Assembly: GCA_964652805.1 (NCBI GenBank)
Contig: CAZZBJ010000001.1
Span: forward strand, 1 to 47,762
Direction of reading: 5' to 3'
Source of the DNA: an uncultured Mordavella sp.
Lineage (GTDB): Bacteria; Bacillota; Clostridia; Lachnospirales; Lachnospiraceae
DNA: 47,762 nucleotides
Shown: one piece after another, positions 13,919 through 41,638 of the stretch
How positions within the stretch are numbered: the stretch's first letter is position 1
Layout: the number at the start of each line of letters is the position of its first letter
Notes under the pieces: model-generated
Databases searched by the model: none
What the model saw: only the letters and a program-made list of their open reading frames with translations
Told to the model about the DNA's origin: nothing
Translations under genes and position numbers: made by a program

Positions 13919-14695
13919 TCACCGTACTTTACTGATATAACAAATCATGTCATCTACATCATGGTCATCATGATCATAAATATATACTTCTGCTTTTATT
14001 TGCGGGTTTAAGGAATACTCAAACGGTATTCCTTTTACTTTTTGTTCAAGATACTGCCTGGCACATGCATCATATTTTTCAAGAATCTGCATATCCATCA
14101 TCCGAAAATGATGTCCGGTTGTAAAACACTTCAGATTGAGTCTGCTGATCTTATCCAATGTTTTCAGATAATCCTCGCCAGTTAAGGATTCAGGAAAAAA
14201 CATACAGATATTAGGAGTCAATGCATCACCCGATAACAGAAGAGAATCTTCCTCACAATAGAGTCCAATACTTCCAGGGGTATGCGCAGGTAATGCTATG
14301 ACCCGAAATTTCTTGTTGCCAATGTCTATAACATCTTGCTCACAAATTTCCTGCAAATGCTCTTCTGACCATACGTTCAAACTCTTCTGGATTTCTTGGA
14401 TTTCAGCCGGCAGATTCGGCAGTTTACGGTCATATGCCGCAGTCAAAGGCCAGTCTGCACGGCTCATATACGCTTGTTCAAAATACCGATCTCCTCCGCA
14501 ATGATCCAGATGTCCATGACTGTTGACCACAATCAGCTCCTTTTGTGTAATCGTCTCTGCATATTTCTTAATATTTTCCACACCACAAGTCGTGTCAAAC
14601 AGAAGTGCTTTCTCGCTTCCTACTACCAACGTACATACATAATTATAAATATCTTTGATTAGGAAAACCTGATCCAGAATCTCTCTGTGTTCCAT
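13919..14695 (-). CDS. MBL-fold metallo-hydrolase
   Basis: 258 aa; NSHGHLDHCGG, AHTPGS, LSGDA, TGH. Confidence 0.92.
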   Translation of the reverse strand: MEHREILDQVFLIKDIYNYVCTLVVGSEKALLFDTTCGVENIKKYAETITQKELIVVNSHGHLDHCGGDRYFEQAYMSRADWPLTAAYDRKLPNLPAEIQEIQKSLNVWSEEHLQEICEQDVIDIGNKKFRVIALPAHTPGSIGLYCEEDSLLLSGDALTPNICMFFPESLTGEDYLKTLDKISRLNLKCFTTGHHFRMMDMQILEKYDACARQYLEQKVKGIPFEYSLNPQIKAEVYIYDHDDHDVDDMICYISKVR

Positions 14696-14760: not shown

Positions 14761-15420
14761 CTATACTGCCTGGTCAGCTGCAATCAACGCCTGCATGGCT
14801 TCTACGGCTTCTTGCGGCATTGGTTCATATGTTCCAAGAGTTTTGGCAATAACCGTTGTCTGTGCCATTTCTTCCGTATAAATCGTAGCATGCATAGCTG
14901 CCTTCATATCTTTTCCACAAGAGAACATACCATGATTCTTAATCAGGCAGACACGTCCTGTCTCACCTATTGTCTTTGCAACTTTGTCTGCAACATCATT
15001 TGATCCAGGCATTGTAAAACTTACAATACCAACTGGCGTAAACTCACACTGAGGAGGCGTAATCGGAATAAGTTCCGGGTTCTCTCCCATTGCGCAGATT
15101 GTTGCATACATACTATGTGTGTGAACCGTTGCATTTACATCCTCTCTCGCACGCATAACGGCTGTGTGCATCGGCACCTCAGATGACGGCTTATACGGTC
15201 CGTCAATCCATTCGTTCGTTCCGTCCTCTTTCATCTGAACAACAGCAATATCTTCTGGCTTCATTCCTGTATAAGAGATTCCACTGGGAGTGATTGCAAC
15301 AATATTTCGGTCTTCTGAATCTCTCATTGCAATATTTCCGGACGTTCCATTGATCAGTCCTTTTTCAACTGCTTCCGTAATCGCCTCTAAAACAATTTTT
15401 CTGATTTTTTCATATTTCAT
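14761..15420 (-). CDS. Class II aldolase/adducin family protein (fuculose-1-phosphate aldolase-like)
   Basis: 219 aa; GTSGNI, ITPSG, KPSSEVPMH, VHTHS, KNHG. Confidence 0.92.
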   Translation of the reverse strand: MKYEKIRKIVLEAITEAVEKGLINGTSGNIAMRDSEDRNIVAITPSGISYTGMKPEDIAVVQMKEDGTNEWIDGPYKPSSEVPMHTAVMRAREDVNATVHTHSMYATICAMGENPELIPITPPQCEFTPVGIVSFTMPGSNDVADKVAKTIGETGRVCLIKNHGMFSCGKDMKAAMHATIYTEEMAQTTVIAKTLGTYEPMPQEAVEAMQALIAADQAV

Positions 15421-15461: not shown

Positions 15462-17432
15462 TTACAAACGCATTGCTGCATAATACGCTTCATTCGTTGC
15501 ATGGTAAATCTGTCCAACATTTTTGCAATCGCCTATCACATAGTATTCGTCTGCCATTTCACACAAAGCATCTACCTTATCATATGGAGCACGGAAGCCA
15601 AGCGCACAGACAACCGAATCCGCCTCAATCACAAATTCTTTTCCATCCTTCTCACAAAGAACACCCTCTGGAATGATTTCTTTTACTTTTGTGCTTACAT
15701 AGCTGACTGCTGCTTTTTCAATCTCCGGCATCAGACCGCCTCTGTAGAAGGAATTGACCTCCATAGCGATTGCTTCTTTCATCTCAATAACAGACACTTC
15801 CTTGCCTTCATGATGGAAAGAAACTGCTGCCTCTCCTCCAACAAGACCTCCGCCCATAATTGCAACCTTCTTACCTAGTTTCTCCGGGTGAAGCTCCGCA
15901 TCAATCGCCATGATCACATGCGGAAGATCCATCCCCTTGATCGGCGGACGCAGCTCATTAGAACCAATTGCAACGAATAATGCATCCGGATCAAACTCCT
16001 TTACATATTCCGGAGTTACTTCTGTATTGAAAACAACTTTTACTCCAGCCTCTTCTACTCTGCGAATCAGTACCTTACAGAATTTCACAATATCCTCTTT
16101 GAAGTATGGCGCTCCGGCAGGATGAAGATTTCCGCCAAGCTTATCGGATTTTTCTACCAATGTTACGTCATGGCCTCTGTTTGCAGCAGTAATCGCTGCT
16201 TCCATACCGCCGGGACCTCCTCCGGCAATCAGTACCTTTTTCACCTTCTCCGGTGCTTTTCGTCCGTATTTCTCCGGAAGCTGCTGCCCCATCGTCGGAT
16301 TGACTGTACACTTTACCGTTTCACTCTTACCAGTCTCACCAAAACATTCATAACATCTCAGGCACGGAGTAATGTCATCTGCACGACCCTCCCATGCCTT
16401 TTTCGCAAGATACGGATCCGCCAGCAAAGCACGTCCGATCTCAACGATATCTGCCTGACCGGTGGCAATGATCTCTTCCATCTGCGCCGGGTCATTTAAG
16501 GAACCAACACAGGCAACCGGAGTTTTTACATGCTTCTTAATCTCCGCTGCCAGATATACATTGACACCTCTCGGGTAGAATGCAGACGGATGGGTGCGGC
16601 AGAACATAGCCGGATCCTCATGATTTCCGCAGGAGACATTGAACAGATCCACCTTGTCATCGATCATCTGCGCAACCTTGATACAGTCCTCCATTCCCAG
16701 TCCTGCCTCTGTAAGGTCATCACCGGAAATTCTTGCTTCAATCGGGAATGTAGGTCCGACTCCCTCCCTGACGGCATCAATTGCCATCATCAAGAATCTT
16801 GCGCGGTTTTCCAGAGAGCCTCCGAATTCATCGGTCCTTTTATTTAACACCGGTGAAAGGAACTGTGAGAACAGCCATCCATGCGCAGCGTGAACCTGGA
16901 CCATGTCAAATCCGCAGTCCTTACAAAGCTTTGCACCTGTCTTATAAGACTCAACGATTTCCAGGATCATCTCCTTAGACATCTCCTGTACCTCTCCTTC
17001 AGGAGTAATCTCGTAGCTTACACCATATGCAGCCTCACAGGTATCCTGATCCCCGCCAACGCTTGCAAGTCCGCCATATTTTCCACCGTGGGAAAGCTGA
17101 ATATTGGCATAGGCTCCTGCGTTGTGAATCGCTCTTGCAGTCTGAGCCATTCCCTGTTTTACACCAAAGGAATCTAACTGCAGCTGCTTATTGTGTGATT
17201 TTCCGGTTGCGGAATGTACAATTGACTCACCATATGTCACAACACCGACACCGCCCATTGCTTTTTCTTCAAGATATGCAGTCATCTCCGGCGTAAAATG
17301 TCCCTCTGTTGTAATCATACTGGGGCTTGTAGGCGCTGCGATGATTCGGTTCTTCATTCTGATATTTCCGATACGGATCGGAGAAAACAAATGAGGATAC
17401 TTTTCCTTCCCTTTACAAGTTCTTGCACTCAT
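15462..17432 (-). CDS. NADH:flavin oxidoreductase (OYE barrel, 4Fe-4S and FAD/NAD domain; BaiCD/2,4-dienoyl-CoA reductase architecture)
   Basis: Start ATG 17432 after GAGGAGG; QLSHGG, HAAHGWLFSQFLSP..NKRTDEFGGSLENRARF, CLRCYEC...C, IAGGGPGGMEAA. Confidence 0.92.
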   Translation of the reverse strand: MSARTCKGKEKYPHLFSPIRIGNIRMKNRIIAAPTSPSMITTEGHFTPEMTAYLEEKAMGGVGVVTYGESIVHSATGKSHNKQLQLDSFGVKQGMAQTARAIHNAGAYANIQLSHGGKYGGLASVGGDQDTCEAAYGVSYEITPEGEVQEMSKEMILEIVESYKTGAKLCKDCGFDMVQVHAAHGWLFSQFLSPVLNKRTDEFGGSLENRARFLMMAIDAVREGVGPTFPIEARISGDDLTEAGLGMEDCIKVAQMIDDKVDLFNVSCGNHEDPAMFCRTHPSAFYPRGVNVYLAAEIKKHVKTPVACVGSLNDPAQMEEIIATGQADIVEIGRALLADPYLAKKAWEGRADDITPCLRCYECFGETGKSETVKCTVNPTMGQQLPEKYGRKAPEKVKKVLIAGGGPGGMEAAITAANRGHDVTLVEKSDKLGGNLHPAGAPYFKEDIVKFCKVLIRRVEEAGVKVVFNTEVTPEYVKEFDPDALFVAIGSNELRPPIKGMDLPHVIMAIDAELHPEKLGKKVAIMGGGLVGGEAAVSFHHEGKEVSVIEMKEAIAMEVNSFYRGGLMPEIEKAAVSYVSTKVKEIIPEGVLCEKDGKEFVIEADSVVCALGFRAPYDKVDALCEMADEYYVIGDCKNVGQIYHATNEAYYAAMRL

Positions 17433-17445
17433 CACAAACCTCCTC

Positions 17446-18501
17446 TTATTTGCGAACCTTCCAGATATATTTTCTCGGTTCACCCTTCAAATATGCTGTA
17501 ACTTCTTCACCCATCATTGTTCCTGACCATCCGTCAACATCTGTTGTAAGTCCTGCCATATGAGGGGTACATACAACGTTTCTCATAGAGAGAAGCGGAT
17601 TGTTTGCCGGAACCGGCTCCTCCCAGTAAACATCGATCGCTGCACCGGCAATCTGTTTGTTCTGAAGCGCTTCGATAAAGTCCCTCTGATCAATGACATA
17701 TGCTCTTGCTGTATTGATCACATATGCTGTTGGCTTCATCCTGCTGAACCAGTCCTTATTCACAATTGCCTTGCAGGATGGGATAGTTGGCAGATGAACG
17801 GAAAGAATATCGCACTCTGAGAGCATCTCATCAAGTTCCACTTTTTCAGCGCCGTCCGCTGTCATCCTCTCTTCCGGACAGAACGGATCATATGCAAGAA
17901 TTTCCATTCCAAAAGCCTTTGCCCTTACGGCAACCTCACGTCCGATCGCGCCATATCCTGCAATACCAAGTTTCTTTCCGTAAAGCTCAAATCCATAACC
18001 ATAATCAGAGAAAGGATGTTTCTCATCAAGCGGTCCAAAGGTTACATTCGGAACGATCTCAACATCGTAAATATTTTCCTTCGCAGGTCCTGTATGCTCT
18101 CCTTTGTTAAGACCGATCGCTGACATGACCATTCTTCTTGTAGATGCGATCATAAGTCCTATCGTATACTCTGCCACAGCTACACGGTTTCTTCCCGGTG
18201 TATAGGAAAGTTCCAGGCCAGCCTCTTTGATTGCGTCATGATCTACCGTTGCAGGTGTTCCCTTTGCAACACCCATGAATTTCATTCCTGACTCAGCCCA
18301 TGCCTTGATCGTCTCCGCTCCGGCATACTCATCTCCCAGAACAACCAGCTCATGTCCCATACATTCTTCTCTTGTCATATCCTCTGTAACGTTACCTTTC
18401 CCATGTTTTAATTCTCCGCAGATCGTAACCTCACACTGTTCATTGATAAATGACATATATTTCTCCGGAATGGATGTGCAAAGAGCCATTTTCTTTTTCA
18501 T
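17446..18501 (-). CDS. D-isomer-specific 2-hydroxyacid dehydrogenase family protein
   Basis: 351 aa; TPGRN..AVAE, GYGAIG, INTAR, DVYWEEP, TPHMAG. Confidence 0.9.
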   Translation of the reverse strand: MKKKMALCTSIPEKYMSFINEQCEVTICGELKHGKGNVTEDMTREECMGHELVVLGDEYAGAETIKAWAESGMKFMGVAKGTPATVDHDAIKEAGLELSYTPGRNRVAVAEYTIGLMIASTRRMVMSAIGLNKGEHTGPAKENIYDVEIVPNVTFGPLDEKHPFSDYGYGFELYGKKLGIAGYGAIGREVAVRAKAFGMEILAYDPFCPEERMTADGAEKVELDEMLSECDILSVHLPTIPSCKAIVNKDWFSRMKPTAYVINTARAYVIDQRDFIEALQNKQIAGAAIDVYWEEPVPANNPLLSMRNVVCTPHMAGLTTDVDGWSGTMMGEEVTAYLKGEPRKYIWKVRK

Positions 18502-18527: not shown

Positions 18528-19673
18528 CTAATATGCTTTTTCAAGAATTGCAAGAACGTCCTCTTTTGTGACATTCTGACGCGGGTTAAAACCAAGAACA
18601 GGCTCTTTTAATACATCCTCTGCCAACATATCAAAGTCTTTTCTGTCAATCCCCTGCTCAGACAGCGTTTTGATCTTTAATTCCTTAATCAATTTCTTAA
18701 GCTCATCTGCAAGTAAATATTTATCCTCTTCGATGCTGCCGCTTACCGGAAGATCTATTGCCTTCGCAAGCTCAACCATCTTCTCCGGGCAGCTGTCTGC
18801 GTTATACTCCATAACATACGGAAGAACCGTAGCATTCGCCATACCATGTGCCAGTCCGAAATGAGCACTCAGCGTATGTGCAATGCCGTGTACCAGTCCG
18901 AGATTTGCATTCGAAAAACCAAAGCCCGTAATGATACATCCGAGCATCATCTGTTCTCTTGCCTCCATGTCAGATCCGTCTTTCACTACTCTTGCTATGT
19001 TACTGTGAAGAATCTGAAGACCTTTAAGAGAATGATATTCGGTCAATGGAGTCGCCATATTGGAAATATAGCTCTCTACTGCATGCGTAATCGCATCCAT
19101 TCCGGTTGCCGCGGTAACACCCGCAGGAGCTGTCTTTGTAAACTCCGGATCGGCGATCACATCGGATGCAACAATCTTGTTGTCAATCACAACATATTTG
19201 ATTACCTTTTCTGTATCAATTAACGCGCTGACATTTGTGATCTCACTGGATGTCCCTGCCGTAGTCGGAACAGCGATCAATGGAAGACATGGGTTCTTCA
19301 CCATATTCATTCCGCCATACTCACTGATCGTTCCCGGATTGGTCATCAATACATTGATTGCCTTTGCCGTATCGATACTGCTTCCGCCTCCGACTGCCAC
19401 GAAACCGTCAACTTCTGCCTTTCTCGCAATAGCGGCCGCCTTTTCAACAACCTCATTTGTTGGATTCGGAATTACCTCATCAAAAATAGTAACGTTTACT
19501 TCTGCCTTCTTTACCTGATCTAATACTTTCTCTGCGATACCTGCTGCTTTTACGCCGCCGTCATATACTACCATCAGATTTTTAATTTCATATCCACTTA
19601 AAAGTTCCGGAAGCTTTTCCACCGCTCCTCTTCCAAATGTAATATTACTCTTTACAAAAAAATCGAAACTCAT
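18528..19673 (-). CDS. Iron-containing alcohol dehydrogenase
   Basis: 381 aa; GGGSSIDTAK, PTTAGTSSE, DAITHAVE, GLVHGIAH, HGMANA. Confidence 0.95.
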   Translation of the reverse strand: MSFDFFVKSNITFGRGAVEKLPELLSGYEIKNLMVVYDGGVKAAGIAEKVLDQVKKAEVNVTIFDEVIPNPTNEVVEKAAAIARKAEVDGFVAVGGGSSIDTAKAINVLMTNPGTISEYGGMNMVKNPCLPLIAVPTTAGTSSEITNVSALIDTEKVIKYVVIDNKIVASDVIADPEFTKTAPAGVTAATGMDAITHAVESYISNMATPLTEYHSLKGLQILHSNIARVVKDGSDMEAREQMMLGCIITGFGFSNANLGLVHGIAHTLSAHFGLAHGMANATVLPYVMEYNADSCPEKMVELAKAIDLPVSGSIEEDKYLLADELKKLIKELKIKTLSEQGIDRKDFDMLAEDVLKEPVLGFNPRQNVTKEDVLAILEKAY

Positions 19674-19813: not shown

Positions 19814-20968
19814 TCATTTTTTCCTCGCGTTATAGATTCCTGCCAGTACGGATATAAGTGTAATTCCAACCGCCGAGATCAGGAAAATGTTGTTTGTTGT
19901 CACCTGTCCAAACAGAACCTCTGATGCTTTATTTAAAACGACCGGAGACAACGTCTGTCCTATACAGTTGCCGCAGGTAAACCATGCTGCTGCCATTGCG
20001 GCTGCGGCTGGAGCAACAGCGTTGGAAACCGCTACCATCCCTGTCGGTATGAATACCCCCTGAGAAATTCCGCAGAAAAATGCCCCGACAACTAAGAGCA
20101 GCATATTTGACGGCGCCAGAGATATCAGGAGAGCTCCAATTGCAAAACTAAGCATTGCGCATGACATGGTCATCTTCTTTGTAATCCTGGTAACAGAACC
20201 CAACACTAATCCTGCCGCAATCTGTACTGCTGAGAATACTCCTGTAAGGATTCCGGATGCAGATGTATCCCCGGCCAGCTCCCCGGACAAGTGCATTGCA
20301 ATATTCGTATTGAATGTGATCAGGAAGAAAAACTCCATCATACAGAAAAAGGACAGAATAAATACGTCTTTATTCATATGTATATCTTCCTTGTTTTCCG
20401 ACTTCACGACACCCGTCTCCGGCAAAAACAGAAACAGAAGAATAAATGCCGCAAGACCAATCACATTCAGATAATATGCATTGCGAAAATCATTTTTCGC
20501 TATCCATCCGGCAACCGTTGTGACAAATACCATTCCTGCCCCTACACTTGCTCCCTGAATTCCCATCACGGAGACTCTTTCATCACCCTCAAAAAATTCT
20601 GCGACAACCGCCGTATTTAACGTGGTCGCCACGCCCATGGTAATTCCATAGATGGCCCTTGAAATAAAAAGCAGCGCAAAGCTATCGGCAAGCAATGGGG
20701 CAAATCCGCTAATCAGCGCAACAAGACCGGAAAATAACAGCAGCCTTTTCTTACTTATGATCATAACCAGCCTGCCGGATGCCAGCGCAATGACCATAGA
20801 GACAAGGGAAGGCACTGTCACCAGCATCTGTACATAGTTGACATTCACCGTATCAAAATGATCTGCAATCTGCCCGAGAACAGGGCTTACACAGAACTGA
20901 AGCCCCTGCAGAAAGGAAATGCAGACAATGGAAATAATAATTTTATATTTTTTCACTTCTCTACTCAT
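19814..20968 (-). CDS. MFS transporter
   Basis: About 12 hydrophobic segments; SPVLGQI..HF, SGRL..IISKKRLL, FFEGDERVSVMG; start overlaps the buk stop. Confidence 0.88.
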   Translation of the reverse strand: MSREVKKYKIIISIVCISFLQGLQFCVSPVLGQIADHFDTVNVNYVQMLVTVPSLVSMVIALASGRLVMIISKKRLLLFSGLVALISGFAPLLADSFALLFISRAIYGITMGVATTLNTAVVAEFFEGDERVSVMGIQGASVGAGMVFVTTVAGWIAKNDFRNAYYLNVIGLAAFILLFLFLPETGVVKSENKEDIHMNKDVFILSFFCMMEFFFLITFNTNIAMHLSGELAGDTSASGILTGVFSAVQIAAGLVLGSVTRITKKMTMSCAMLSFAIGALLISLAPSNMLLLVVGAFFCGISQGVFIPTGMVAVSNAVAPAAAAMAAAWFTCGNCIGQTLSPVVLNKASEVLFGQVTTNNIFLISAVGITLISVLAGIYNARKK

Positions 20969-22067
20969 CGAACGCAAACCCCCGGAAACAGCATTCTCCT
21001 GTATACTTCTTTACCTTTTCTTTCCCATCAAGTACGCGAACTGCCCCTGCCGCCATAGCTTCCATCTCAAACTCGCCCGGATAAGCGCTTACAGGAGCGA
21101 TCCACTCACAGGTCTCCGTAATCTGATTCACCAGATTCTTACTGTGAACCATGCCTCCGCCCAGGAGGATTCCGTCAACCTTTCCGTGCAGAACTGCCGC
21201 CATGGAACCAATACATTTCTCAATTTGGTAAATCATTGTATTCCACAGCATCTCTGCATATTGGTCGCCGTTTGCAGCACGTTCTGTAAGTTCAATCGCA
21301 TCTGAGATACCCAGATGGCTTACAAAGCCGCCGCTTCTGGTGCAAAGCTGTTTCACTGTCTTGATATCTTTATCCTCTGCATACTTCAAGAGATCCGCAA
21401 CTGCTACACTGCCGCATCTTGTTGGCGCCATAGGTCCCTCACCGCCTACGATGTCAAACCCGTCTACCATCCTTCCCGCGCGATGGGCGGATATGGAGAT
21501 TCCTCCTCCGATGTGACAAACAATGAAATTACATTCTTCATACCGCTTTCCCATACTTTCCGCATGACGGATCGCGGTTTCTTTCAGATTCAGCGCATGA
21601 AGATGCACACCTCTGTAAACGCCCTTAATACCGGTCATTCTGGCAAGATCCTGAAGTTCATCTACATCGGGAGGATTAACCGTAAATGCTTTCGCCTGAT
21701 ATTTCTGTGCAAATTCATATGCAATGCCGGGTCCTAATCCAGCCGGATGGATCACACCGTTTTTGGCATTGATGGAATGATCCAAAACAAGATCATCAAT
21801 CGCATATGTACCGCCTTCCATGGCGAGCAGCCCGCCTCCGCGTCCGACACAGGCATCCATTCCTTCCAGGTCAACCTGATTCTCTTCTAACAATTGTTCA
21901 ATTGTAGATTTTCTGTACTCAAGCTGTTCCGACAAAGTCTTGTATTTGGACAGCACCTTCGCATCGTGGCTTACATTTGCCGAAAACAGAGTTTTTTCTC
22001 CCTGAAACAACGCAATTTTCGTAGAGGTTGAACCGGGATTGACCGTAAATACTTTATAATCACTCAT
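20961..22067 (-). CDS. buk: Butyrate kinase family acyl-phosphate kinase
   Basis: 368 aa; VNPGSTSTKIALF, GRGG, HALN, HIGGGISI, GEGPMAPTRCG, PGEFEMEAMA. Confidence 0.92.
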   Translation of the reverse strand: MSDYKVFTVNPGSTSTKIALFQGEKTLFSANVSHDAKVLSKYKTLSEQLEYRKSTIEQLLEENQVDLEGMDACVGRGGGLLAMEGGTYAIDDLVLDHSINAKNGVIHPAGLGPGIAYEFAQKYQAKAFTVNPPDVDELQDLARMTGIKGVYRGVHLHALNLKETAIRHAESMGKRYEECNFIVCHIGGGISISAHRAGRMVDGFDIVGGEGPMAPTRCGSVAVADLLKYAEDKDIKTVKQLCTRSGGFVSHLGISDAIELTERAANGDQYAEMLWNTMIYQIEKCIGSMAAVLHGKVDGILLGGGMVHSKNLVNQITETCEWIAPVSAYPGEFEMEAMAAGAVRVLDGKEKVKKYTGECCFRGFAFDE

Positions 22068-22105
22068 CTCATTGTCTCCTTATCTCACTTATTTTTTCCT
22101 GCCTG

Positions 22106-22492
22106 CTAAGCATCTGACTCTGCAATCACAATTGCTCCTGCATAATCCTTTTCATGGGTCACAGATACAAGCAGCCTTTTTACCCCGGCTTCTTCCATCA
22201 GTTCTTTCAGCACAGGGGTATCCGTTACATAGGGGGAACCATCCTCATGATTTAATGTTTCCACTATGCGAAGATCAAAGATTTTTTCTTTCGTCAAATG
22301 TGCGAATGCTTTAAAAGCCGCCTCCTTGACTGCAAACCGGGAGGCAAGATACGCAAAAGGATCCGCAGCATTTCGGGAGGCTTCCCGTTCCTTCTTAGAA
22401 AATGTCTTTATAAGAAACGCTTCTCCAACATCCTCTGCCAGACGTTTTACTTCTTTTATTTCTGTCAGATCCATTCCGACTCCGAGTACCAT
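22106..22492 (-). CDS. acpS: Holo-ACP synthase (AcpS-type phosphopantetheinyl transferase)
   Basis: 128 aa; LGVGMDLTE, LASRFAVKEAAFKA, G.P, VSVTHEKDYA. Confidence 0.92.
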   Translation of the reverse strand: MVLGVGMDLTEIKEVKRLAEDVGEAFLIKTFSKKEREASRNAADPFAYLASRFAVKEAAFKAFAHLTKEKIFDLRIVETLNHEDGSPYVTDTPVLKELMEEAGVKRLLVSVTHEKDYAGAIVIAESDA

Positions 22493-22525
22493 AACCTCTG
22501 CCTCCTCTATTTTCTCAACTGAATT

Positions 22526-23536
22526 TTATTTGTTCTTCTCTGCCGCCGCGCGAATGACCAGCATCGCTACATTTCCCAGCATCTCGTCAACCGGAGCGCT
22601 TCTGGAGAAATCGCAGACCGGTTTGGCAAAGCCCTGAAGAACAGGACCATATGCATTTGCCTTGCCGAAAATCTGAATCAGCTTCACTCCGATATTTCCG
22701 GCATGAAGATTCGGGAAGATCAGAACATTTGCCTTTCCTGCCACTTCGCTCTCACGCTTTACCTTATGCTCTGCGACCTTTGGGATAATTGCAGAATCGA
22801 GCTGGAACTCCCCATCACATTTAATTTCCGGGCGAAGCTCATGTACGATCTTCACAGCCTCTCTCACCACATCAATGGATTCATGCTCCGCGCTTCCGGT
22901 TGTTGAAAAGGCAAGCATCGCAACTCTTGGCTCCCACCCAAGAAGGTTTCTGACTGTATCTGCTGATGAAACAGCAATTCCTGCCAGCTCTTCTGCATTC
23001 GGCTGTGCGGTAACTGCACAATCGGCAAGTGCCAGCATCTGACCCTGCGGTCCTTCAAATCCCGGAATATCAGCAAAGCCAAGACTTGACGGGCTTACTA
23101 CACCTTCCGCGAATCCTACGCCCTGCATCGCTTCCATTGTGACATCTCCGGTAGAATATTCTTTTCCGGCAGCCACGCAATCAACATAGTCCATATTCAA
23201 AAGGAACATTCCGCAGCGTACCGGGTCAACGGTAAGCTTCTTGAGTGTCGGTTTCTTCCGTTTTCCTTCATGTGCTGCAACAAATTCTTCCGCAAATGCA
23301 TCCATTGCATCCATATCTGTGTTATCAAAATATTCAAATCCTTCTGTGGATACTCCATTCTCAACCGCAAGTTTCTCTGTATTTTCCCTGCTTCCGATCA
23401 GAACCGGAGTTCCAATCTCCGTGCGGACAACCTCAGCTGCCGTTTTTAAAATATCAACACTGTATGACTCCGGAAAGCAGATTCTCTGCGGCGTATTTTT
23501 CGCTCTCTCTACCATTCCTGCAATAAACTCATTCAT
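22526..23536 (-). CDS. Phosphate acyltransferase (Pta/Ptb family)
   Basis: 336 aa; RICFPES, ADCAV, RVAMLAFST, DGEFQLDSAI, IFPNLHAGNIGVK, GPVLQG..KPVCDFSR. Confidence 0.92.
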   Translation of the reverse strand: MNEFIAGMVERAKNTPQRICFPESYSVDILKTAAEVVRTEIGTPVLIGSRENTEKLAVENGVSTEGFEYFDNTDMDAMDAFAEEFVAAHEGKRKKPTLKKLTVDPVRCGMFLLNMDYVDCVAAGKEYSTGDVTMEAMQGVGFAEGVVSPSSLGFADIPGFEGPQGQMLALADCAVTAQPNAEELAGIAVSSADTVRNLLGWEPRVAMLAFSTTGSAEHESIDVVREAVKIVHELRPEIKCDGEFQLDSAIIPKVAEHKVKRESEVAGKANVLIFPNLHAGNIGVKLIQIFGKANAYGPVLQGFAKPVCDFSRSAPVDEMLGNVAMLVIRAAAEKNK

Positions 23537-23556
23537 TTTCTTTCTCTCCTTAAAAT

Positions 23557-23585
23557 GAAAGCTCCGATTATTGTTCGGAGCTTTC
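23557..23585 (-). terminator. Intra-operon hairpin between the DUF35 and phosphotransacylase genes
   Basis: 11-bp stem gaaagctccga/tcggagctttc followed by ATTTT on the minus strand. Confidence 0.55.
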
Positions 23586-23605
23586 CTTTCATATCTTATC
23601 GTTTC

Positions 23606-24058
23606 TTAGTCCTCGTCCAGTTCAAAAAACAGAGTGGTATATCTTCCCATGTCATAAAATACCGGACGTACACGTACCGGAAGCTGATCCTGAATCTGTC
23701 TTGCTTTCTTCCTGGTCACTCCAAGAATCACTGCATTCATGGATACACCCTCATCAAATTCAACTTCTCCGCATACATATTTCAGATTTCTGTCTTCAAG
23801 TTCAAGTCTTGCATTCAGGACGCCTGTAAATACAAAGCTTTTCAGAACGCCTGTTCCTTTGAGCGTTGTCCATTCTGTCTCATGATATCCGCATGTATTA
23901 CATGCATGGTGCGGCGGGAATTCGACAGCGCCACATTCCGTACATTTTCTGGCATAGATAACGCCTTCTTTCAATCCATTCCAGAACTTCTCTACCACAT
24001 GTTCTCTGTTCCAGAAATCTTCTGTCTTTACTGTTATTTTTTCTGTACTCATGACCAT
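23606..24058 (-). CDS. DUF35 Zn-ribbon/OB-fold protein (thiolase partner)
   Basis: 150 aa; FWNGLKEG...KCTECG.VEFPP...CNTCG....W....GTG.L.SF; directly follows the thiolase. Confidence 0.9.
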   Translation of the reverse strand: MVMSTEKITVKTEDFWNREHVVEKFWNGLKEGVIYARKCTECGAVEFPPHHACNTCGYHETEWTTLKGTGVLKSFVFTGVLNARLELEDRNLKYVCGEVEFDEGVSMNAVILGVTRKKARQIQDQLPVRVRPVFYDMGRYTTLFFELDED

Positions 24059-24064
24059 ACCTCC

Positions 24065-25354
24065 TTAAAAGTTTGCCCTGAGAATTGTTGCGCGGACATT
24101 CTGTGCCCCGCCAAATCCTCTGAGGAATGTGTGTTTTGGCAGCTTCCTGACCTGACGTTCTCCGGCCTCTCCACGCATCTGTGTCACTGCTTCAAAAACA
24201 TCTGCCATTCCGGATGCTGCAAAAGCATGTCCATAGGAGGTACGACCGCCATTTGTATTCATCGGCTTGTCTCCATCGTAGGCAAGCCTTCCGTCAAGGG
24301 CATATTTCCATCCCTCTCCCTTTGGAAGGTAACCAATCTCTTCGGCTGCCAGGAATGCAGAAGAACCAATAAAGTCATTTACAAAAACAAGATCCATATC
24401 GTCTGCTGTCAGTCCGGTCATTTCAAATACCTGACGGGCAGCTTCTGCGGTCGCTTTTTTCTCAAGATGCGGAACAATCGCATCGAGAACGGACGCTCCG
24501 GTTCCAAGCACCTCAATTGGCTTTGCATTAAATTTGCGGGCAATCTCTGTCGGAACTACGATACACGCTGCCGCTCCATCTGCAACACAGGAGTCACTGG
24601 ATGTACGCAGATACTGTGTCATCTTTGGATTGTAAGGGGACTTCATATATTCCCACACATCATCAAATCCAGCCTCTTTCGCCAGCTCGTCAAACGGAGT
24701 TCTCCGAATGGCTCTCGGACAGAGTGTTGCATTTCTTCTGAAATGATAGGACTGATGATTCAATACATCGTCCGCCTGTTCCGCAGTCAGTCCGTTCTCA
24801 TGTACATAATAGTTTATCCAGTCATCGTGGTTCATACCAGGACCGCCGCCGAGATATCTTCCGTAAGCACGGTCAAAGATAGAATCCAGATCAGGGAATA
24901 ATACCTCCGGTGTAAGCGCTGTTCTCATGTGATCCGGTGTATTTCCATCCGGCATGCCTGTACCCATCTCACTGCATCCTGTCAGTACGATATCATAAGC
25001 ACCGCTTGCCACCGCAAATACCGCTTCTTCAAGAGCGATGTATCCTGTACAGCATCCTTCGGAATGGGTGATAGATCCCTTTCCTCTCATGCCAAACCAG
25101 TCTGCCACCTGAAGGTTTGGTGTGATACTGTTATACAACATATGCGGGTTCGCCGATCCATGGAAGAAGTACTGCACATCTCTTGGCTCGACTCCCGCAT
25201 CAGCCATTGCATCCAGCGCAGCATATCCAAAAAGTTCCCCGTTTGTCAGTCCCTTATAGGTCGGATTCTCCACCCCATTGAAAAATGGAGTTGCACCGAC
25301 ACCTACGATTGAGACACTCCTCATATTTTTCCCAAGTTTTACATTCGTCAACAT
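24065..25354 (-). CDS. Thiolase-family protein (SCP2/archaeal/PhlC-like type)
   Basis: 429 aa; VSIVGVGATPF, SEGCCTG (Cys101), ADGAAACIV, NTNGG...GHAFAASG, QMRGEAGERQV. Confidence 0.92.
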   Translation of the reverse strand: MLTNVKLGKNMRSVSIVGVGATPFFNGVENPTYKGLTNGELFGYAALDAMADAGVEPRDVQYFFHGSANPHMLYNSITPNLQVADWFGMRGKGSITHSEGCCTGYIALEEAVFAVASGAYDIVLTGCSEMGTGMPDGNTPDHMRTALTPEVLFPDLDSIFDRAYGRYLGGGPGMNHDDWINYYVHENGLTAEQADDVLNHQSYHFRRNATLCPRAIRRTPFDELAKEAGFDDVWEYMKSPYNPKMTQYLRTSSDSCVADGAAACIVVPTEIARKFNAKPIEVLGTGASVLDAIVPHLEKKATAEAARQVFEMTGLTADDMDLVFVNDFIGSSAFLAAEEIGYLPKGEGWKYALDGRLAYDGDKPMNTNGGRTSYGHAFAASGMADVFEAVTQMRGEAGERQVRKLPKHTFLRGFGGAQNVRATILRANF

Positions 25355-25369
25355 ATCATTACCTCACAT

Positions 25370-25612
25370 TTACATTTCATCCATAATATGATCAACAAGA
25401 TCACCGATTGTCTCAAACTGGCTCATTCTTGCCACCGGAATCATGACATCGTATTCATTTTCTATGGATGCACTCAAAGCTACCTTCTGCATAGACTGAC
25501 CGCCAAGCTCCTCAGCGATCTTTGTGTTTTCATTCATCTCAGATGCCTCTTTTTTGTAGGCTCTTGCAGCAAACTCAATCACCTTTTCTAAAACGTCTTT
25601 TCTTTCTTCCAT
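25370..25612 (-). CDS. Acyl carrier protein with an atypical phosphopantetheine motif
   Basis: 80 aa acidic protein; ELGGQS(40)MQ, IENEYDVMIP, FETIGDLVDHI; AcpS in the same operon. Confidence 0.85.
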   Translation of the reverse strand: MEERKDVLEKVIEFAARAYKKEASEMNENTKIAEELGGQSMQKVALSASIENEYDVMIPVARMSQFETIGDLVDHIMDEM

Positions 25613-25648
25613 GGTTTTCCTCTTTCATACTATCTAAAAATTATGTAA

Positions 25649-26902
25649 TTATTTCTGATACTTTTCTTCCTCTGCCTTTACAAAGCCCGGCTTTGCCAAT
25701 CCGACAAATACAGCAAAACCGACCGCCATAAGCACTGCTCCGCAGATATACGGAATACGGTAGCTTCCTGTGATGCCGTAGAATGCTGCAAAGAATGCAG
25801 GTCCGATTGCACCAACGACCTGGATGATCGGCTGAATCACTCCGTATCCATTTGCAAAGCTGTCGCCAAATTCTTCAATACACAGAGAAGCCGGCCAGTT
25901 TGCAGCTCCGCCAACTACCATACCGATCATAACGAGGGAAGCCCACACACCAACAGTTGTTCCGGTAAGATTCAAAAGCATTGCCGCAACACCACATACA
26001 TAGGTTGTGCAAGCTGCTTTTCTTGCACCAATTTGGGAATCGATCACTCCACAGATATAAGAGCCCGGGAGTGCAAAAAGTCCGGATGCAAGCATCATCA
26101 TGGTTGCCTTTCCCGAATCGAATCCAATTTCAAGAAGCCTCGGGAACAGCTGAACCATCAGACCACTCGCAAAAAGCAGCTGTGTGCCAAGTGTAATACC
26201 ATGTATCCAAACCTGTGGGGTTGAAAGAAGCTTCTTGGTTGTCCAGATACTTTTTTTATTGAATTTTTTCTCCTCATCTGCACCTTCTGCAGCCTCTCCG
26301 TTATCCGGTGCAAACCCTTTGTCCGCAGGATTATCAGCAAGTAAAGCAGCCATCATAACAGCCGCAACAATTGCAATTACAATAAACGGGAGGAATCCTC
26401 CAAGGGAACCCATTGCACCATAACCGGCCTGATAGATCATAGTTGCTACGCCGGAGCAGAGCGGAATACCCATTGTTACAATTCCCATAACCACACCTTT
26501 TTTCTTTGGAAACCATCTGGAAATAAGTACCGGTGAAAGCTGATAACCTATACCACTGGAAATTCCATTTGCAAGAATCAGACAAACAGCAAAGAGTAGA
26601 AAATCACCACTTGTGCCAAGTCCGATCATTACAACTACATAAATTGCAAAACAAATAAGACTGAGCTTCTTTGCAGAATATTTTACTGAAAGCTTACCGA
26701 GCACAAACCCTGCAACGATATTCGCAAGTGAACCTGCGGAAATCAAACTTGTAAGTACCGCAGCATTCCATCCATGAAGCTCTGCCAGAGTTCCTGAAGC
26801 GGCATTCATTGCGCTTCCGACAGCAGTTGCTGTAAAGTATGCCAGAAATGCATAAATAATTAACAGCCAACCCTTACCATATCCCTTTTTTGTATTTTTC
26901 AT
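25649..26902 (-). CDS. MFS transporter (OFA-like)
   Basis: 417 aa multi-pass protein; ISRWFPKKKGVVMG, P.DKG..PD loop. Confidence 0.9.
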   Translation of the reverse strand: MKNTKKGYGKGWLLIIYAFLAYFTATAVGSAMNAASGTLAELHGWNAAVLTSLISAGSLANIVAGFVLGKLSVKYSAKKLSLICFAIYVVVMIGLGTSGDFLLFAVCLILANGISSGIGYQLSPVLISRWFPKKKGVVMGIVTMGIPLCSGVATMIYQAGYGAMGSLGGFLPFIVIAIVAAVMMAALLADNPADKGFAPDNGEAAEGADEEKKFNKKSIWTTKKLLSTPQVWIHGITLGTQLLFASGLMVQLFPRLLEIGFDSGKATMMMLASGLFALPGSYICGVIDSQIGARKAACTTYVCGVAAMLLNLTGTTVGVWASLVMIGMVVGGAANWPASLCIEEFGDSFANGYGVIQPIIQVVGAIGPAFFAAFYGITGSYRIPYICGAVLMAVGFAVFVGLAKPGFVKAEEEKYQK

Positions 26903-27128: not shown

Positions 27129-27959
27129 ATGAAAACAATCCACGTGCTTTTGGTATCCGGTCTTGTCACAATCGAACACCAGAGCAGAAAAATGAACGAA
27201 AGACTCCGGGAGCTTCTCGAAGCAACCGGCCGCTTTCAGGTAGTGATCACCGAAGAGTTCCGAAACATAACTCCGGAATATCTCGAACCCTATGATCTCT
27301 TACTCATTAATTATGACGGGAAGCTTCTGCCGACACAGCCTGCCAGACGCTTTGGCGAGCAGACAGAAAACGCTGTCTTCGACTTTGCCGCACAAGGCAA
27401 AGGCATCGTCTTCTATCATTCCAGTATCTGGGTCGACGCTCACTGGCCGGACGAGTGGCGTAAACTGCTTGGCGGATACTGTGCTATGGAGCAGGGCTGC
27501 CGCCGCTGTCCCAAAGATGATTACTATGTAGAAACTACTGACCCCAATCATCCGATCACAAAAGACATTGATGCAAAATGGATGAATGTTTTTGATGATC
27601 TTTTCACTCAGCTGATCATACATCCGGAAGCCAGAATGCATGTGCTGGCATCTGTGTATGACAATGTTGATTTTTACAGGGTTCCCGGCTTCCCTCCCGC
27701 ACATCATCCGGTGGAAATTCCTGATGGAGATCTCACAAAGATGCCCGGTGTAAATCAATACACGCCTGTAATCTGGACAAATGAATACGGAAAGGGACGT
27801 GTATTTGTCACATCCATCGGACACTGGGAAGCATTAGATCGTTTCAACTTTATCACCATGCTTGTCCGAGGATGCGAATGGGCCGCAACCGGGGAGGTAA
27901 CTCTTGAAAAACCGGACCGCAGCGGAGATAACCGTTTAAAGCTTTTCCCATATTATTAA
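27129..27959 (+). CDS. ThuA domain-containing protein
   Basis: 276 aa; GRFQVVITE, YDLLLINY, GKGIVFYH, HPITK, PVIWTNEYGKGRVFVTSIGH. Confidence 0.88.
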   Translation: MKTIHVLLVSGLVTIEHQSRKMNERLRELLEATGRFQVVITEEFRNITPEYLEPYDLLLINYDGKLLPTQPARRFGEQTENAVFDFAAQGKGIVFYHSSIWVDAHWPDEWRKLLGGYCAMEQGCRRCPKDDYYVETTDPNHPITKDIDAKWMNVFDDLFTQLIIHPEARMHVLASVYDNVDFYRVPGFPPAHHPVEIPDGDLTKMPGVNQYTPVIWTNEYGKGRVFVTSIGHWEALDRFNFITMLVRGCEWAATGEVTLEKPDRSGDNRLKLFPYY

Positions 27960-28052: not shown

Positions 28053-29978
28053 ATGGATACATTGAATTTGAGCCTGCGGCAACGCAAACTGATTCATATT
28101 CTGCAGAATCAAAGCGATTATATTACCGGAAATGAACTTGCCGGACAATTGTCTGTATCTCCTCGTACAATTCGATACGATATCGAAACCATCAATCAAG
28201 CGCTTGCCCCTCACCATGCCAAAATCCTTTCAGAACGCAGCAAGGGATATCTTTTTCACGCAAAAGTCCCTGAAGCAATCCAGAAAATGAATCAAATTGA
28301 GGCTGCACTTTTTTCCAGAGAAGACCGTATACATTTCCTGGCTTTTCGCCTGTGTCTCTCCGATGAGCCTCTGAATCTGTACGATCTGGAAGAGGAGATT
28401 TATGTCAGCCGCACAGCACTGGAGAGTGATCTGCGCCATTTAAAGCGGAGCTACGGTCTGGATTCTCCTTATATTAAACTTCACCGTTCTGGTGACAACA
28501 TTTGGTTTCATCCTGACGAAGCTAAAATACGTCTGCTTCTCAATCATCTGTTTCTGGAAGACTGGAATTATAACAGAAGTGAAAATGCCTACTATGATCA
28601 TTCATTTCTGAATCGAAACATCATGGAGTATGTAACAGGTATGGTATCCCATGTTCTATATCAATTCGGAATATCCATGGAGGATTCCTCCCTGGTATCA
28701 TTGAATCTGGCTATCACGATTATGTACTACCGTGTCACATCCGGACATTACCTGCCGGAGGATTTATCCATTTCATGGGAGGATTCACAATCCGCCAATG
28801 CTGCCCGGTGTATTTTCGACACTCTGGAAAACAAGTGGAACTGCACCTTCCGTCCTGAAGAACAAAATCACATATACCAACGAATCATGTCCGGACGTAT
28901 ATCTGACGTCACAGCTTTGAGTTTCGAGACCGCTCCTGTCTGTTTTGATCCGTCGATTCTGGCATTTGCAGATGAATATTTAACAAAAATAACAACAACC
29001 TTTGGGATTGATTTTTCATCCAATGAAGACTTTTACATCACACTTTTAATGTTTTTGAAACATCTGTCCATGCCTGCTGCGGTGTTTCAGCTGCAGGGAA
29101 ATCAAACGATCTTAAAAAAAACATTGCTCATTGAATATGAGATTTCCTACTTGATTGAAGAATTGTCGCTGAAATATCTTGGGCATTATCTCAGCCAGAC
29201 AGAACTTCTGTACCTGGCACACTGCATATACGGTGCATTGGAGGACCTTCAGGAAATCCATCCCAACACCAAACTGAAAACTGTTATCTGCTGTCATCTT
29301 AGCATGCCGGCCGCATGGGCACTTAAAAAGCGGATCATGGGGGTCTTTGACAAATATTTAAATCTTGTCAGTCTGCTCCCGGTTAATGCCAAAGACACAT
29401 TTGATTTCAATCATATCGATCTTGTGATTTCTACGGCCCAGAAAATCATTACAAAAAACACAGGAACCGAAATCATATATTTTGATTCGGTTTTGTCTTA
29501 TCAGGATTTTCCAAAGCTCTCTGCATTCATTCGGAAGAAGCAATTAGAAAGAATTGCTTTTTACCCATATCTTTCTATCAGGAAATTACTGGAACATGCT
29601 TTCTGGCATGAAAAGGCAGGGAACTGTGACCGATTTGAAATTATAGAATTACTTGCCAATGATTTTATAAATAACGGGTTCACCTCCGAAGATTACCTGG
29701 AAGATGTTCTGAGACGGGAATCCATCTCCACCAATGCCCTGAACCACGGAATTCTGTTTCTGCATTCTCTGGTCCCGTCGCAGAAGACCGCACTTTCTGC
29801 AGCCATCTTCCAGACTCCTGTCGTCTGGTGTTCCCGGAAGATTCGTATTGTTGTCATGGCCGCATTTCGGCCGGAACAAACTTCTTATGCATTCTATCTT
29901 CTCAATCGGTTTGCCGATGACCGCATTGACCTGGACCGGACAAAAACAAAACAGTCCTTTATAGAATACTTCTCATAA
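28053..29978 (+). CDS. BglG/MtlR-type PRD-domain transcriptional activator (paralog 1)
   Basis: 641 aa; HTH ITGNELAGQLSVSPRTIRYDI, second HTH (IYVSRTALESDL), PRD-like region, EIIB-like KTVICCH...IDLVIST, EIIA-like VLRRESIST...LH. Confidence 0.88.
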   Translation: MDTLNLSLRQRKLIHILQNQSDYITGNELAGQLSVSPRTIRYDIETINQALAPHHAKILSERSKGYLFHAKVPEAIQKMNQIEAALFSREDRIHFLAFRLCLSDEPLNLYDLEEEIYVSRTALESDLRHLKRSYGLDSPYIKLHRSGDNIWFHPDEAKIRLLLNHLFLEDWNYNRSENAYYDHSFLNRNIMEYVTGMVSHVLYQFGISMEDSSLVSLNLAITIMYYRVTSGHYLPEDLSISWEDSQSANAARCIFDTLENKWNCTFRPEEQNHIYQRIMSGRISDVTALSFETAPVCFDPSILAFADEYLTKITTTFGIDFSSNEDFYITLLMFLKHLSMPAAVFQLQGNQTILKKTLLIEYEISYLIEELSLKYLGHYLSQTELLYLAHCIYGALEDLQEIHPNTKLKTVICCHLSMPAAWALKKRIMGVFDKYLNLVSLLPVNAKDTFDFNHIDLVISTAQKIITKNTGTEIIYFDSVLSYQDFPKLSAFIRKKQLERIAFYPYLSIRKLLEHAFWHEKAGNCDRFEIIELLANDFINNGFTSEDYLEDVLRRESISTNALNHGILFLHSLVPSQKTALSAAIFQTPVVWCSRKIRIVVMAAFRPEQTSYAFYLLNRFADDRIDLDRTKTKQSFIEYFS

Positions 29979-36349: not shown

Positions 36350-36359
36350 TCTGCACACC

Positions 36360-37322: not shown

Positions 37323-37365
37323 CGTTGCTTTCTCCTTGTAATTGTGTATTGTTATTGTTTCTACA

Positions 37366-37422
37366 ATAATATCTAATTCCAAATCATGCCTCAAACTTAC
37401 AATTGCCACTTCAATGTGGCAA
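37366..37422 (-). promoter_or_regulatory. Island operator 3 and promoter of the reductase operon
   Basis: TTGCC(37403-07)-N10-GGCAA(37418-22); leftward TTGAGG-17-TATTAT. Confidence 0.75.
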
Positions 37423-37498
37423 AAACTAATTTTGTACTTTTCCATATAAAACTATAAGTTATAATTATTCTGAACTATTCTGAAAGGAGACACTTAAG

Positions 37499-41473: not shown

Positions 41474-41513
41474 TCTCGTTTCCTCCCTCTTTTCAAAGGT
41501 TTTTCCTGCTAAT

Positions 41514-41607
41514 AGAATAGCAGTATGGTCTTTTCTCTTCAAAAACCAATTTTCCGCAAGCAAACGGCAATTTAAAGTTTGTCATCCGGCAGGCAAAGCA
41601 TTATTCT
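41514..41607. promoter_or_regulatory. Island operator 4, centred between divergent kinase and dehydrogenase promoters
   Basis: TTTCC(41551-55)-N10-GGCAA(41566-70); leftward TTGAAG-17-TATTCT and rightward TTGTCA-17-TATTCT, each -35 lying 8 nt from the site. Confidence 0.78.
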
Positions 41608-41638
41608 GAAACCAGATTCAGGAAAGGAGCAAACAAAT

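Follow-up and report, generated by a model that had tools for sequence, protein, structure and literature searches.

What would a stand-alone acyl carrier protein (ACP) be doing in one operon with a thiolase-fold enzyme, a DUF35 protein, a phosphotransacylase (Pta), a phosphopantetheinyl transferase (PPTase) and a butyrate-kinase-family acid kinase (Buk)? We met this combination in contig CAZZBJ010000001.1 (positions 1 to 47,762) of assembly GCA_964652805.1, from an uncultured Mordavella sp. of the Lachnospiraceae, and we refer to this whole stretch of 47,762 nucleotides as the window. The operon belongs to a conserved, real and apparently undescribed system. We are fairly confident that the system is an ATP-yielding relay in which acyl groups travel on ACP rather than on coenzyme A (CoA). 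Taking the relay together with a polyhydroxy dicarbonyl substrate for this particular copy is more tentative, and we put it slightly short of an even chance.

A preliminary description, made from the letters alone, had named a run of eight genes on the minus strand, and we found open reading frames (ORFs) of all the named families in those places. They are a major facilitator superfamily (MFS) transporter (25649..26902; best NCBIfam matches are monocarboxylate and oxalate-formate types, all under cut-off), which likely imports or exports an acid; the ACP (25370..25612; PF00550, 35.7 bits vs cut-off 20.8); a class I SCP2/archaeal-type thiolase-fold enzyme (24065..25354; PF22691); its DUF35 zinc-ribbon/OB-fold partner (23606..24058; PF12172 above cut-off, PF01796 below it at 24.5 vs 27.1 bits); a modified Pta (22526..23536; PF01515); an AcpS-type PPTase (22106..22492; TIGR00516, 69.8 vs cut-off 59.8); Buk (20961..22067), which is over both cut-offs (TIGR02707 371 vs 289; NF002834 410 vs 222); and a second MFS transporter (19814..20977), found in 26 of the 80 class I-search loci described below. 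The gaps between these genes run from -17 to 69 bases. The run does not end at 19814 as had been thought. The operon goes on to 13919 through five more minus-strand genes with gaps of -38 to 140 bases: an Fe-dependent alcohol dehydrogenase (Fe-ADH; 18528..19673; lactaldehyde reductase is the best match, under cut-off), a D-2-hydroxyacid dehydrogenase (2HADH; 17446..18501), an old yellow enzyme (OYE)/BaiCD-type FMN-FAD-FeS ene-reductase (15462..17483), a class II aldolase-fold protein (14761..15420) whose nearest solved relatives are fuculose-phosphate aldolases, and a metallo-beta-lactamase (MBL)-fold hydrolase by family match (13919..14695), possibly a thioesterase or lactonase. As the preliminary description had claimed, the 28 ORFs plus 16 window ORFs that we scanned (shadow ORFs excepted) hold no ketosynthase, malonyl transferase, HMG-CoA synthase, ligase, CoA-transferase or enoyl hydratase; the thiolase gave a weak cross-match to the ketosynthase C-terminal family.

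Is the arrangement more than a local accident? We scanned GTDB with the window thiolase, found 146 relatives and kept the best 80 (59-95% identical), which come mostly from Lachnospiraceae but also from Absicoccus and Anaerolineales. Neighbours were labelled by their best BLAST match to our own reference set. Among these 80 loci DUF35 was present at 78, ACP at 73, Pta at 38 (one an ordinary Pta) and a Buk-family gene at 22. At the seven loci with no ACP the sequence ends 302 bases or less upstream of the thiolase, so the association is not due to chance. ACP lies within 400 bases of the thiolase-DUF35 pair in 72 of 73 loci, it stands beside the pair at all 34 loci with full flanks, and it is kept although the gene order is widely rearranged. 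Conservation of both ACP and AcpS had been expected, and only part of this held: a PPTase is found within 10 kb at 18 of the 34 full-flank loci, but AcpS and Sfp-type enzymes alternate, with AcpS at 3 and the Sfp type at 29 of the 80. A second scan, of metagenomes with a second paralog (class II), gave at least 309 relatives, and the best 80 of these had DUF35 at 75 loci, ACP at 70, Pta at 65, Buk at 58, flavone-reductase (FLR)-like genes at 33, a FAD/NuoF subunit at 31, Sfp at 18, AcpS at 4, an FGGY kinase at 1 and an aldolase at none. The thiolase is rare, present in 6 of 250 sampled genomes of the family.

In one paralog group the link between ACP and DUF35 is covalent. Long DUF35 proteins proved to be DUF35-ACP fusions in 7/7 tested. 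Two acyl-ACP thioesterases are found in clusters with such fusions, and two thiolase-DUF35 fusions were also seen. The seven, listed by our locus identifiers, are L097:10636-11730, L193:9456-10532, L194:10856-11644, L195:1075-1839, L197:7744-8826, L203:8106-9107 and L205:889-1662. They are divergent paralogs, some with two ACP domains, in clusters with acyl-ACP thioesterase, URO-D-like and phloretin hydrolase (Phy)-like genes.

We next consider whole genomes. For this comparison we took 40 of the 80 class I-scan genomes, chosen for long contigs, and 33-40 thiolase-free genomes of the family. A Pta of the module type is present in 40/40 class I genomes and in 4/4 genomes that have only another paralog, vs 0/36 thiolase-free genomes. 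The source assembly itself (85% complete) has one such thiolase, of class I, and no class II paralog was found in it. It also carries a housekeeping Pta-Ack pair, two Ptb-Buk pairs and three other ACP-family proteins. A second PPTase sits on contig C111, so the operon AcpS is likely dedicated.

The active sites are informative as well. In 160 thiolase sequences of at least 400 residues, Cys101, His376, His65, Glu99 and Tyr183 are invariant. The HDxF motif reads NDF in all 160, with Asn326 at the histidine position. Acetoacetyl-CoA thiolysis depends on the HDxF histidine, which is missing from PhlC and MucB, enzymes that acylate acceptors other than CoA (PMC12960953). PhlC carries Tyr298 at this site, vs Asn in the window thiolase. 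HMMER aligned only the C-terminal part of the thiolase to PhlC (acceptor residues His56, Tyr124, His347-Asp352), and the invariant His65 may be the counterpart of PhlC His56. The family scores of the thiolase are all far under the NCBIfam cut-offs. The class II thiolase model resembles all SCP2-type thiolases about equally (TM 0.67-0.76), so the fold picks no function. The ACP has an attachment site at Ser40, a serine kept in 150/150 sequences, a net charge of -9 and no DSL motif. In DUF35 a basic patch at 113-121 is conserved. We considered a fatty-acid or polyketide synthase (PKS) role for the ACP and set it aside: there is no ketosynthase neighbour, the protein stays under the equivalog cut-offs, and separate fatty-acid synthesis genes lie on contig C16, where the fatty-acid ACP is 34% identical to that of the operon.

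The Pta has changed in a telling place. Arg133 of the M. thermophila enzyme aligns to Met134 of the window Pta. In 100 Pta sequences of 300-400 residues (fragments and the ordinary Pta of locus L034 fall outside this filter), the Arg133 column is never Arg and Tyr282 is never Tyr, while Asp309, Ser311 and Arg312 are kept in all; the second Asp is Glu in 99. Arg87 is missing in 38/39, the sole exception being the ordinary Pta of L034, which lies at the locus edge and keeps both arginines. There are two Pta clades, about 45% identical, and both are without the arginines, whereas the housekeeping Pta on contig C49, to which the window Pta is 37% identical, retains Arg87 and Arg133. The window Pta falls under the Pta model (TIGR00651, 262.8 vs cut-off 311.2 bits) and far under the Ptb model (66 vs 410), and its predicted structure is the ordinary Pta fold. 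In the Pta of P. gingivalis the 3'- and beta-phosphates of acetyl-CoA are bound by these arginines; activity drops by 58% and 21% when they are lost, and the site-1 residues are essential (PMC6461089). The window Pta thus looks active and yet appears to have shed its contacts to the CoA nucleotide, which fits an ACP-bound arm. The Buk pocket motifs are specific to this subfamily, common to classes I and II, and unlike those of the other two Buk of the genome. A complex prediction for a Pta dimer with ACP scored 0.02, with a mark of 0.32.

Taken together, ACP conservation, the DUF35-ACP fusions, the Pta residue losses and the co-occurrence of Pta with the thiolase give comparative support to the suggestion, made in the preliminary description, that a private ACP replaces CoA. 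The question of whether Pta uses only CoA comes out on the same side as far as alignments can tell, with CoA contacts lost, catalytic residues kept and strict co-occurrence with the thiolase.

What the relay works on depends on the paralog. A tree of 37 representatives sets class I (support 99/96) apart from class II (99/97, including the Anaerolineales), with further groups besides, and 26 near-fixed positions differ between the two classes. Class II is present in 26 of the 40 genomes, and FLR-like genes accompany it in 26/26, vs 7/14 genomes without it. Class I has partners of its own: the OYE reductase in 38 of 40 genomes, and 2HADH, the aldolase and an FGGY carbohydrate kinase in 36 each. 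This set is found in 0-1 of 33-36 thiolase-free genomes and in 0 of 4-7 genomes without class I. Seven class I genomes without FLR-like and deglycosidase genes, including Extibacter muris, still carry it, mostly as one self-contained cluster. In the window the FGGY kinase lies outside the operon (39911..41563, minus strand), beside a Zn-dependent polyol-dehydrogenase-like gene (41579..42691, plus strand) that is divergently oriented to it here and in several relatives. Where both classes occur together, 18 of 26 genomes hold just one Pta of the module type, and the relay therefore appears to be common to both classes.

The hosts have a recognizable character. FLR-like genes are found in 33/40 class I genomes, with up to 9 paralogs per genome, vs 1/40 thiolase-free genomes, where the one copy is broken. 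The beta subunit of C-glycoside deglycosidase is over cut-off in 29/40 vs 2/36, the phloretin-hydrolase family is present in 9/40 vs 0/36, and a short-chain dehydrogenase/reductase (SDR) resembling phloroglucinol reductase (PGR) in 7/40 vs 2/36; the best PDB match of the PGR query is 5G4K, which we take to be phloroglucinol reductase. From these co-occurring genes we conclude that the module belongs to degraders of plant glycosides.

We infer a pathway of the following kind. AcpS, whose family is clear, would make holo-ACP. An MFS transporter would import a plant-derived precursor, and from it the OYE reductase would make a polyhydroxy 2-hydroxy-1,3-dicarbonyl with either an open chain or a ring. 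Cys101 would attack one carbonyl of this free 1,3-dicarbonyl (not a CoA ester), and the other half would leave as an enediolate. The acidic ACP would dock on DUF35, and its thiol would take the acyl group from the Cys101 acyl-enzyme in a ping-pong reaction. Pta would convert acyl-ACP to acyl-phosphate, and Buk would use this to make ATP and the free acid. The FGGY kinase, 2HADH, class II aldolase and Fe-ADH, which co-occur, would in some such order process the fragments to dihydroxyacetone phosphate (DHAP) and a reduced by-product. The version we favour is a C2-C3 cleavage of a 3-keto-hexose-type compound, in which tetronate would go through 4-phosphotetronate and an oxo-acid to DHAP and CO2, and glycolaldehyde would go to ethylene glycol. 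The system likely works like PhlC, PlsX and Buk in series.

The presence of a kinase, a dehydrogenase and an aldolase in the class I set calls for a polyhydroxy fragment. The best families are gluconokinase and xylulokinase for the FGGY protein, phosphoglycerate and 4-phosphoerythronate dehydrogenases for 2HADH, and fuculose/ribulose-phosphate aldolase and 3-oxo-tetronate-phosphate decarboxylase for the aldolase, all under cut-off. Class I therefore probably cleaves a polyhydroxy 1,3-dicarbonyl; a formyl transfer followed by a pentulose-1-phosphate route, or the opening of a cyclic dione, would presumably suit the class I enzymes nearly as well. The class II paralog would run the same relay on dihydrochalcones, which it likely cleaves. 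The acylphloroglucinols that the preliminary description wanted screened fit class II better; the further genes of the operon, which it had missed, point this class I copy to a sugar-like beta-dicarbonyl. More broadly, we consider it a somewhat better than even prospect that there is an anaerobic pathway family making ATP by substrate-level phosphorylation on a protein carrier, with at least 4 interchangeable thiolase-DUF35 paralog groups that cut C-C bonds in compounds formed as plant glycosides are degraded. In such a family class II would take dihydrochalcones and class I sugar-like 1,3-dicarbonyls, and every group would deliver to one ACP-specific Pta and kinase.

Several substrates or routes were tried and not adopted. 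Phloroglucinol as the class I substrate would fit a PGR-like gene in only 7/40 genomes, and its ring-opened product would offer the FGGY kinase no primary hydroxyl. An inositol route was suggested by TIM-barrel and Gfo/Idh/MocA neighbours that match IolE and IolG far under cut-off; we keep it as one form of the cyclic-dione idea. The notion that ThuA is a 3-keto-glycal hydratase found no confirmation in the literature, PDB or Atlas searches, and ThuA is optional. A cupin of the Anaerolineales was considered as a dihydrophloroglucinol hydrolase, an enzyme that the relevant paper puts in the cyclase family. A search for the Zn-dehydrogenase in 5 genomes gave no matches, but it was run without a positive control and its result is not used.

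A number of observations weigh against the relay or against a sugar-like substrate for this copy. Because the genomes compared are related and the thresholds are our own, the counts look more independent than they are. No more than 18 of the 34 full-flank loci have a PPTase within 10 kb, only 21/40 genomes have ThuA, and 2HADH, aldolase and FGGY are all missing from the same four class I genomes. The ATP yield would be about the same if a 3-keto-sugar were reduced to an ordinary sugar, so the true substrate may differ. The class I-specific residues are less polar (Phe378, Ala333 and Val257 vs His, His and Lys in class II), which on the alignment is not what a sugar pocket obviously needs. A single Pta and shared Buk motifs mean that one Pta/Buk pair would have to handle both arylpropionyl and polyhydroxy acyl groups; the sharing suggests instead that the acyl groups of the two classes are similar. 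FLR-like and VprA-like genes lie 5-10 kb from the operon, in an assembly where the only such thiolase is of class I. Any of the paralogs might explain the aryl-lactate that Catenibacillus scindens makes from taxifolin.

These last points lead to an alternative that keeps the ACP-to-ATP relay and gives this copy flavonoid-derived dihydrochalcones, cleaved by a PhlC-like retro-Friedel-Crafts reaction to phloroglucinol, arylpropionate or aryl-lactate, and ATP. It would be an energy-conserving substitute for phloretin hydrolase, and we regard it as unlikely but worth serious attention. The abundance of FLR-like genes (33/40 vs 1/40) beside a phloretin-hydrolase family in only 9/40 genomes speaks for it, as do FLR-like and VprA-like genes in a window with no class II copy and the service of several paralogs by one Pta. 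C. scindens has three paralogs and converts taxifolin to 3,4-dihydroxyphenyllactate by an unexplained route (PMC11170127), whereas C. butyricum, for which a Phy is predicted, takes taxifolin no further than its dihydrochalcone (PMC11868195). However, the FLR link is complete only where class II is present, and in the class II loci FLR-like genes are common (33/80) while FGGY (1) and aldolase (0) are not; the sugar set goes with class I. In addition, the source genome has a phloretin-hydrolase-family gene of its own on contig C27 (E 4e-15). PhlABC makes aryl ketones from acetyl-CoA, so thioester formation in reverse should be uphill and ATP from a retro-Friedel-Crafts cleavage may be energetically marginal. 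In another alternative, Buk and Pta would consume ATP in placing an acid, such as a 3-oxo-aldonate or an enoate, on ACP; OYE and thiolase would then act on the thioester as in beta-oxidation, and the same Pta and Buk would unload the products. The operon has no ligase or CoA-transferase, which makes Buk-Pta the sole activation route on hand, the first MFS resembles monocarboxylate transporters, and the nearest solved relatives of the OYE protein are 6QKG (NCR A), which presumably acts on a thioester, and 2,4-dienoyl-CoA reductase. We think it quite unlikely all the same: the histidine for thiolysis of a 3-oxoacyl-thioester is Asn in 160/160, and the neighbours scanned include no recurrent enoyl hydratase or 3-hydroxyacyl dehydrogenase.

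Buk and Pta could also load ACP for biosynthesis or detoxification, with thiolase-DUF35 acylating an acceptor on C or O as PhlABC and MucABC do and an MFS exporting the product. PhlC and MucB, which also lack the HDxF histidine, do run in the acylating direction, and two MFS genes flank the core. This reverse direction, which the preliminary description had offered as also fitting, matches the gene context poorly: the surroundings are catabolic, with glycosidases, C-deglycosidases (29/40 vs 2/36), FLR-like reductases, a sugar kinase, an aldolase and PRD/PucR regulators, no PhlA/HMG-CoA synthase (HMGS; PF01154) was found in the 85%-complete assembly, and no PKS or non-ribosomal peptide synthetase is among the recurrent neighbours. 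We rate it as very unlikely. Least probable of those that we weighed is that thiolase, Pta and Buk use ordinary CoA, and that ACP and PPTase are employed otherwise or are passengers. The window Pta may still use CoA, since loss of the arginines lowers the P. gingivalis activity only in part (58% and 21%; PMC6461089). Moreover, 16 of 34 full-flank loci have no PPTase nearby, and no ACP adjoins the thiolase at L092, a locus of the class II type, or at some loci of group III. This sits badly with the DUF35-ACP fusions, with ACP at 34/34 full-flank loci despite many rearrangements, with two Pta clades about 45% identical that both lack the CoA arginines, and with a genome already supplied with a housekeeping Pta-Ack and two Ptb-Buk pairs.

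How does this relay compare with what is known? By sequence (E 5e-32 to 3e-19) and fold its nearest relatives are the archaeal ACAT/HMGS/DUF35 complex (6ESQ, 7YVY) and the benzoylsuccinyl-CoA thiolase BbsAB (7PXP). These share the thiolase-DUF35 pair with a catalytic Cys and GH motif (Cys101 and His376 here), but they keep HDxF where the window thiolase reads NDF, use CoA esters and have no ACP. PhlABC (PpATase, 5M3K/5MG5) and MucABC (9VBO) also combine an SCP2-type thiolase with DUF35, keep the Cys, lose the HDxF histidine and transfer an acyl group through the enzyme with a non-CoA carbon partner, at a TM of about 0.71 for the class II model. They differ in that the window system has no PhlA/HMGS subunit (none in the window, the recurrent neighbours scanned or the assembly), has Asn rather than Tyr at the HDxF site, is about 18-21% identical, and adds ACP, PPTase, Pta and Buk in a catabolic context. 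The Ltp2-ChsH2 and Sal-Shy aldolases are defined by the lack of a catalytic Cys and by a hydratase partner; the window thiolase has an invariant Cys, and there is no hydratase in the window. Pta-Ack and Ptb-Buk have the same folds as the window pair, which keeps the Pta site-1 Asp/Ser/Arg and a Buk over its family cut-off, but the arginines for CoA phosphates are lost, the second Asp is Glu, the Buk pocket is changed and the pairing with the ACP-thiolase is strict. PlsX is an acyl-ACP:phosphate acyltransferase, and the chemistry proposed here, acyl-ACP to acyl-phosphate, is like it; the window protein belongs to PF01515, no PlsX model is among the family matches of the window proteins, and PlsX serves lipid synthesis and not ATP formation. 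In catabolism, citrate lyase and malonate decarboxylase likewise break C-C bonds with the help of a carrier protein of their own, but its arm is ribosyl-dephospho-CoA, the acyl group is recycled internally, and neither is known to have an acyl-phosphate or kinase step. Autoinducer-2 (AI-2) breakdown by LsrK/LsrG/LsrF offers a precedent for such a cleavage, though with CoA: downstream of an FGGY kinase, LsrF thiolytically splits a dicarbonyl of sugar origin into DHAP and acetyl-CoA (PMC8016206). LsrF is not known to have a thiolase fold, and the Lsr operon is without ACP, Pta and Buk. Phy, of the FLR-Fcr-Phy flavone pathway, breaks the bond that we propose for class II, and FLR-like genes adjoin class II, but Phy is hydrolytic, belongs to another family (PF18089) and conserves no energy.

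On the features tested, the system falls outside the CoA-dependent thiolase-DUF35 pairs, PhlABC and canonical Pta. The preliminary description knew of no characterised pathway with this layout, and our literature search, which covered mainly open-access journals, likewise turned up none; Table 2 and Data Set S1 of PMC11170127 may list the genes. If our reading is right, this would be a new kind of substrate-level phosphorylation in which acyl-ACP replaces acyl-CoA, and a case of a thiolase capturing the C-C cleavage energy of non-activated ketones. Class I would be an unrecognised self-contained catabolic pathway in cultured gut isolates, of which Extibacter muris DSM 28560 and Faecalicatena contorta carry class I only. 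A Pta/Buk pair specific for ACP could serve to load or unload carrier proteins without CoA. The paralogs would also be candidate enzymes for open steps of gut polyphenol breakdown, as 24 of 33 FLR-bearing genomes have no phloretin-hydrolase-family gene, and for the aryl-lactate route of C. scindens (PMC11170127).

The rest of the window fits around the operon as follows. Upstream, on the plus strand, are a ThuA-like gene (27129..27959), an optional member, and, by family match, a PRD/EIIA-domain regulator (28053..29978). On the minus strand there follow a NuoF-like FeS region fused to a FAD reductase domain (31453..34224), a candidate ring-opening reductase, and, by family match, a NuoG-like FeS/GltD-like NAD(P)H electron-input subunit (34214..36409). 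The vinylphenol reductase VprA is the best family match, under cut-off, of this candidate Fcr-like reductase (31453-36409). Many relatives encode the NuoF-like and the VprA-like FAD domains in separate genes, and together these domains may form a multi-subunit ring-opening reductase. An FLR-like flavoprotein (36360..37445, minus strand) is homologous to F. plautii FLR (7D38, its sole PDB match, E 6e-39, 137 bits) and is a candidate for flavone reduction. 7D38 is an FLR-chrysin structure (PMC7862272), and a second F. plautii FLR copy was inactive on apigenin (PMC8398226). At 37540-37704, between the FLR-like gene and a second PRD-domain regulator (37864..39807, plus strand, family match), lies a 58-residue remnant that has no Pfam match and is 45% identical to a SnoaL-like protein recurrent in related loci. 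A GH120 glycosidase, a sugar transporter and an AraC regulator (42819-47553) stand beside the kinase/dehydrogenase pair.

GC is mostly 0.49-0.57 at 1-14000 vs 0.39-0.49 at 14001-42000; the change just past the last operon gene suggests the edge of an island. In relatives, transposase-like ORFs are found beside the cluster. A ketopantoate reductase family gene (8709-9626), 4 kb past the operon in the higher-GC part, is probably unrelated. Promoter-like sites numbered 39 vs 29.7 +/- 4.4 in shuffles and terminator-like sites 12 vs 14.3, which gave nothing usable. On contig C27 of the source assembly, the phloretin/DAPG-hydrolase-family gene (9415-10254) has an esterase-like gene and a peptide-type ABC transporter on its 5' side.

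Some of the relatives deserve mention in their own right. A third thiolase group, sister to class I (L089, L198, L199, L200, L202), has fixed TIM-barrel, glyoxalase and aldo-keto reductase genes, often with ROK, Gfo/Idh/MocA and ABC-transporter genes and often with no ACP or Pta nearby. A Phy-like gene stands between ACP and Pta of the class II operon at L168 and L169, and a DUF1097 membrane protein (L094:3031-3558), a candidate acid exporter, lies 3' of Buk in about 30 class II loci. The Anaerolineales loci L073-L075 combine the class II module with FLR-like, FAD/FeS reductase, PPTase, PucR regulator and SDR genes (best PDB match of the SDR, 5G4K). The thiolase-free genome G001 is probably a case of a decayed island: stops interrupt its FLR-like and PGR-like genes, and its aldolase match is partial. 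At the other extreme, three thiolase paralogs occur in both C. scindens (G277) and a further genome (G287); the C-deglycosidase beta-subunit family is matched 14 times in the first and 16 times in the second, and FLR-like genes number 8-9.

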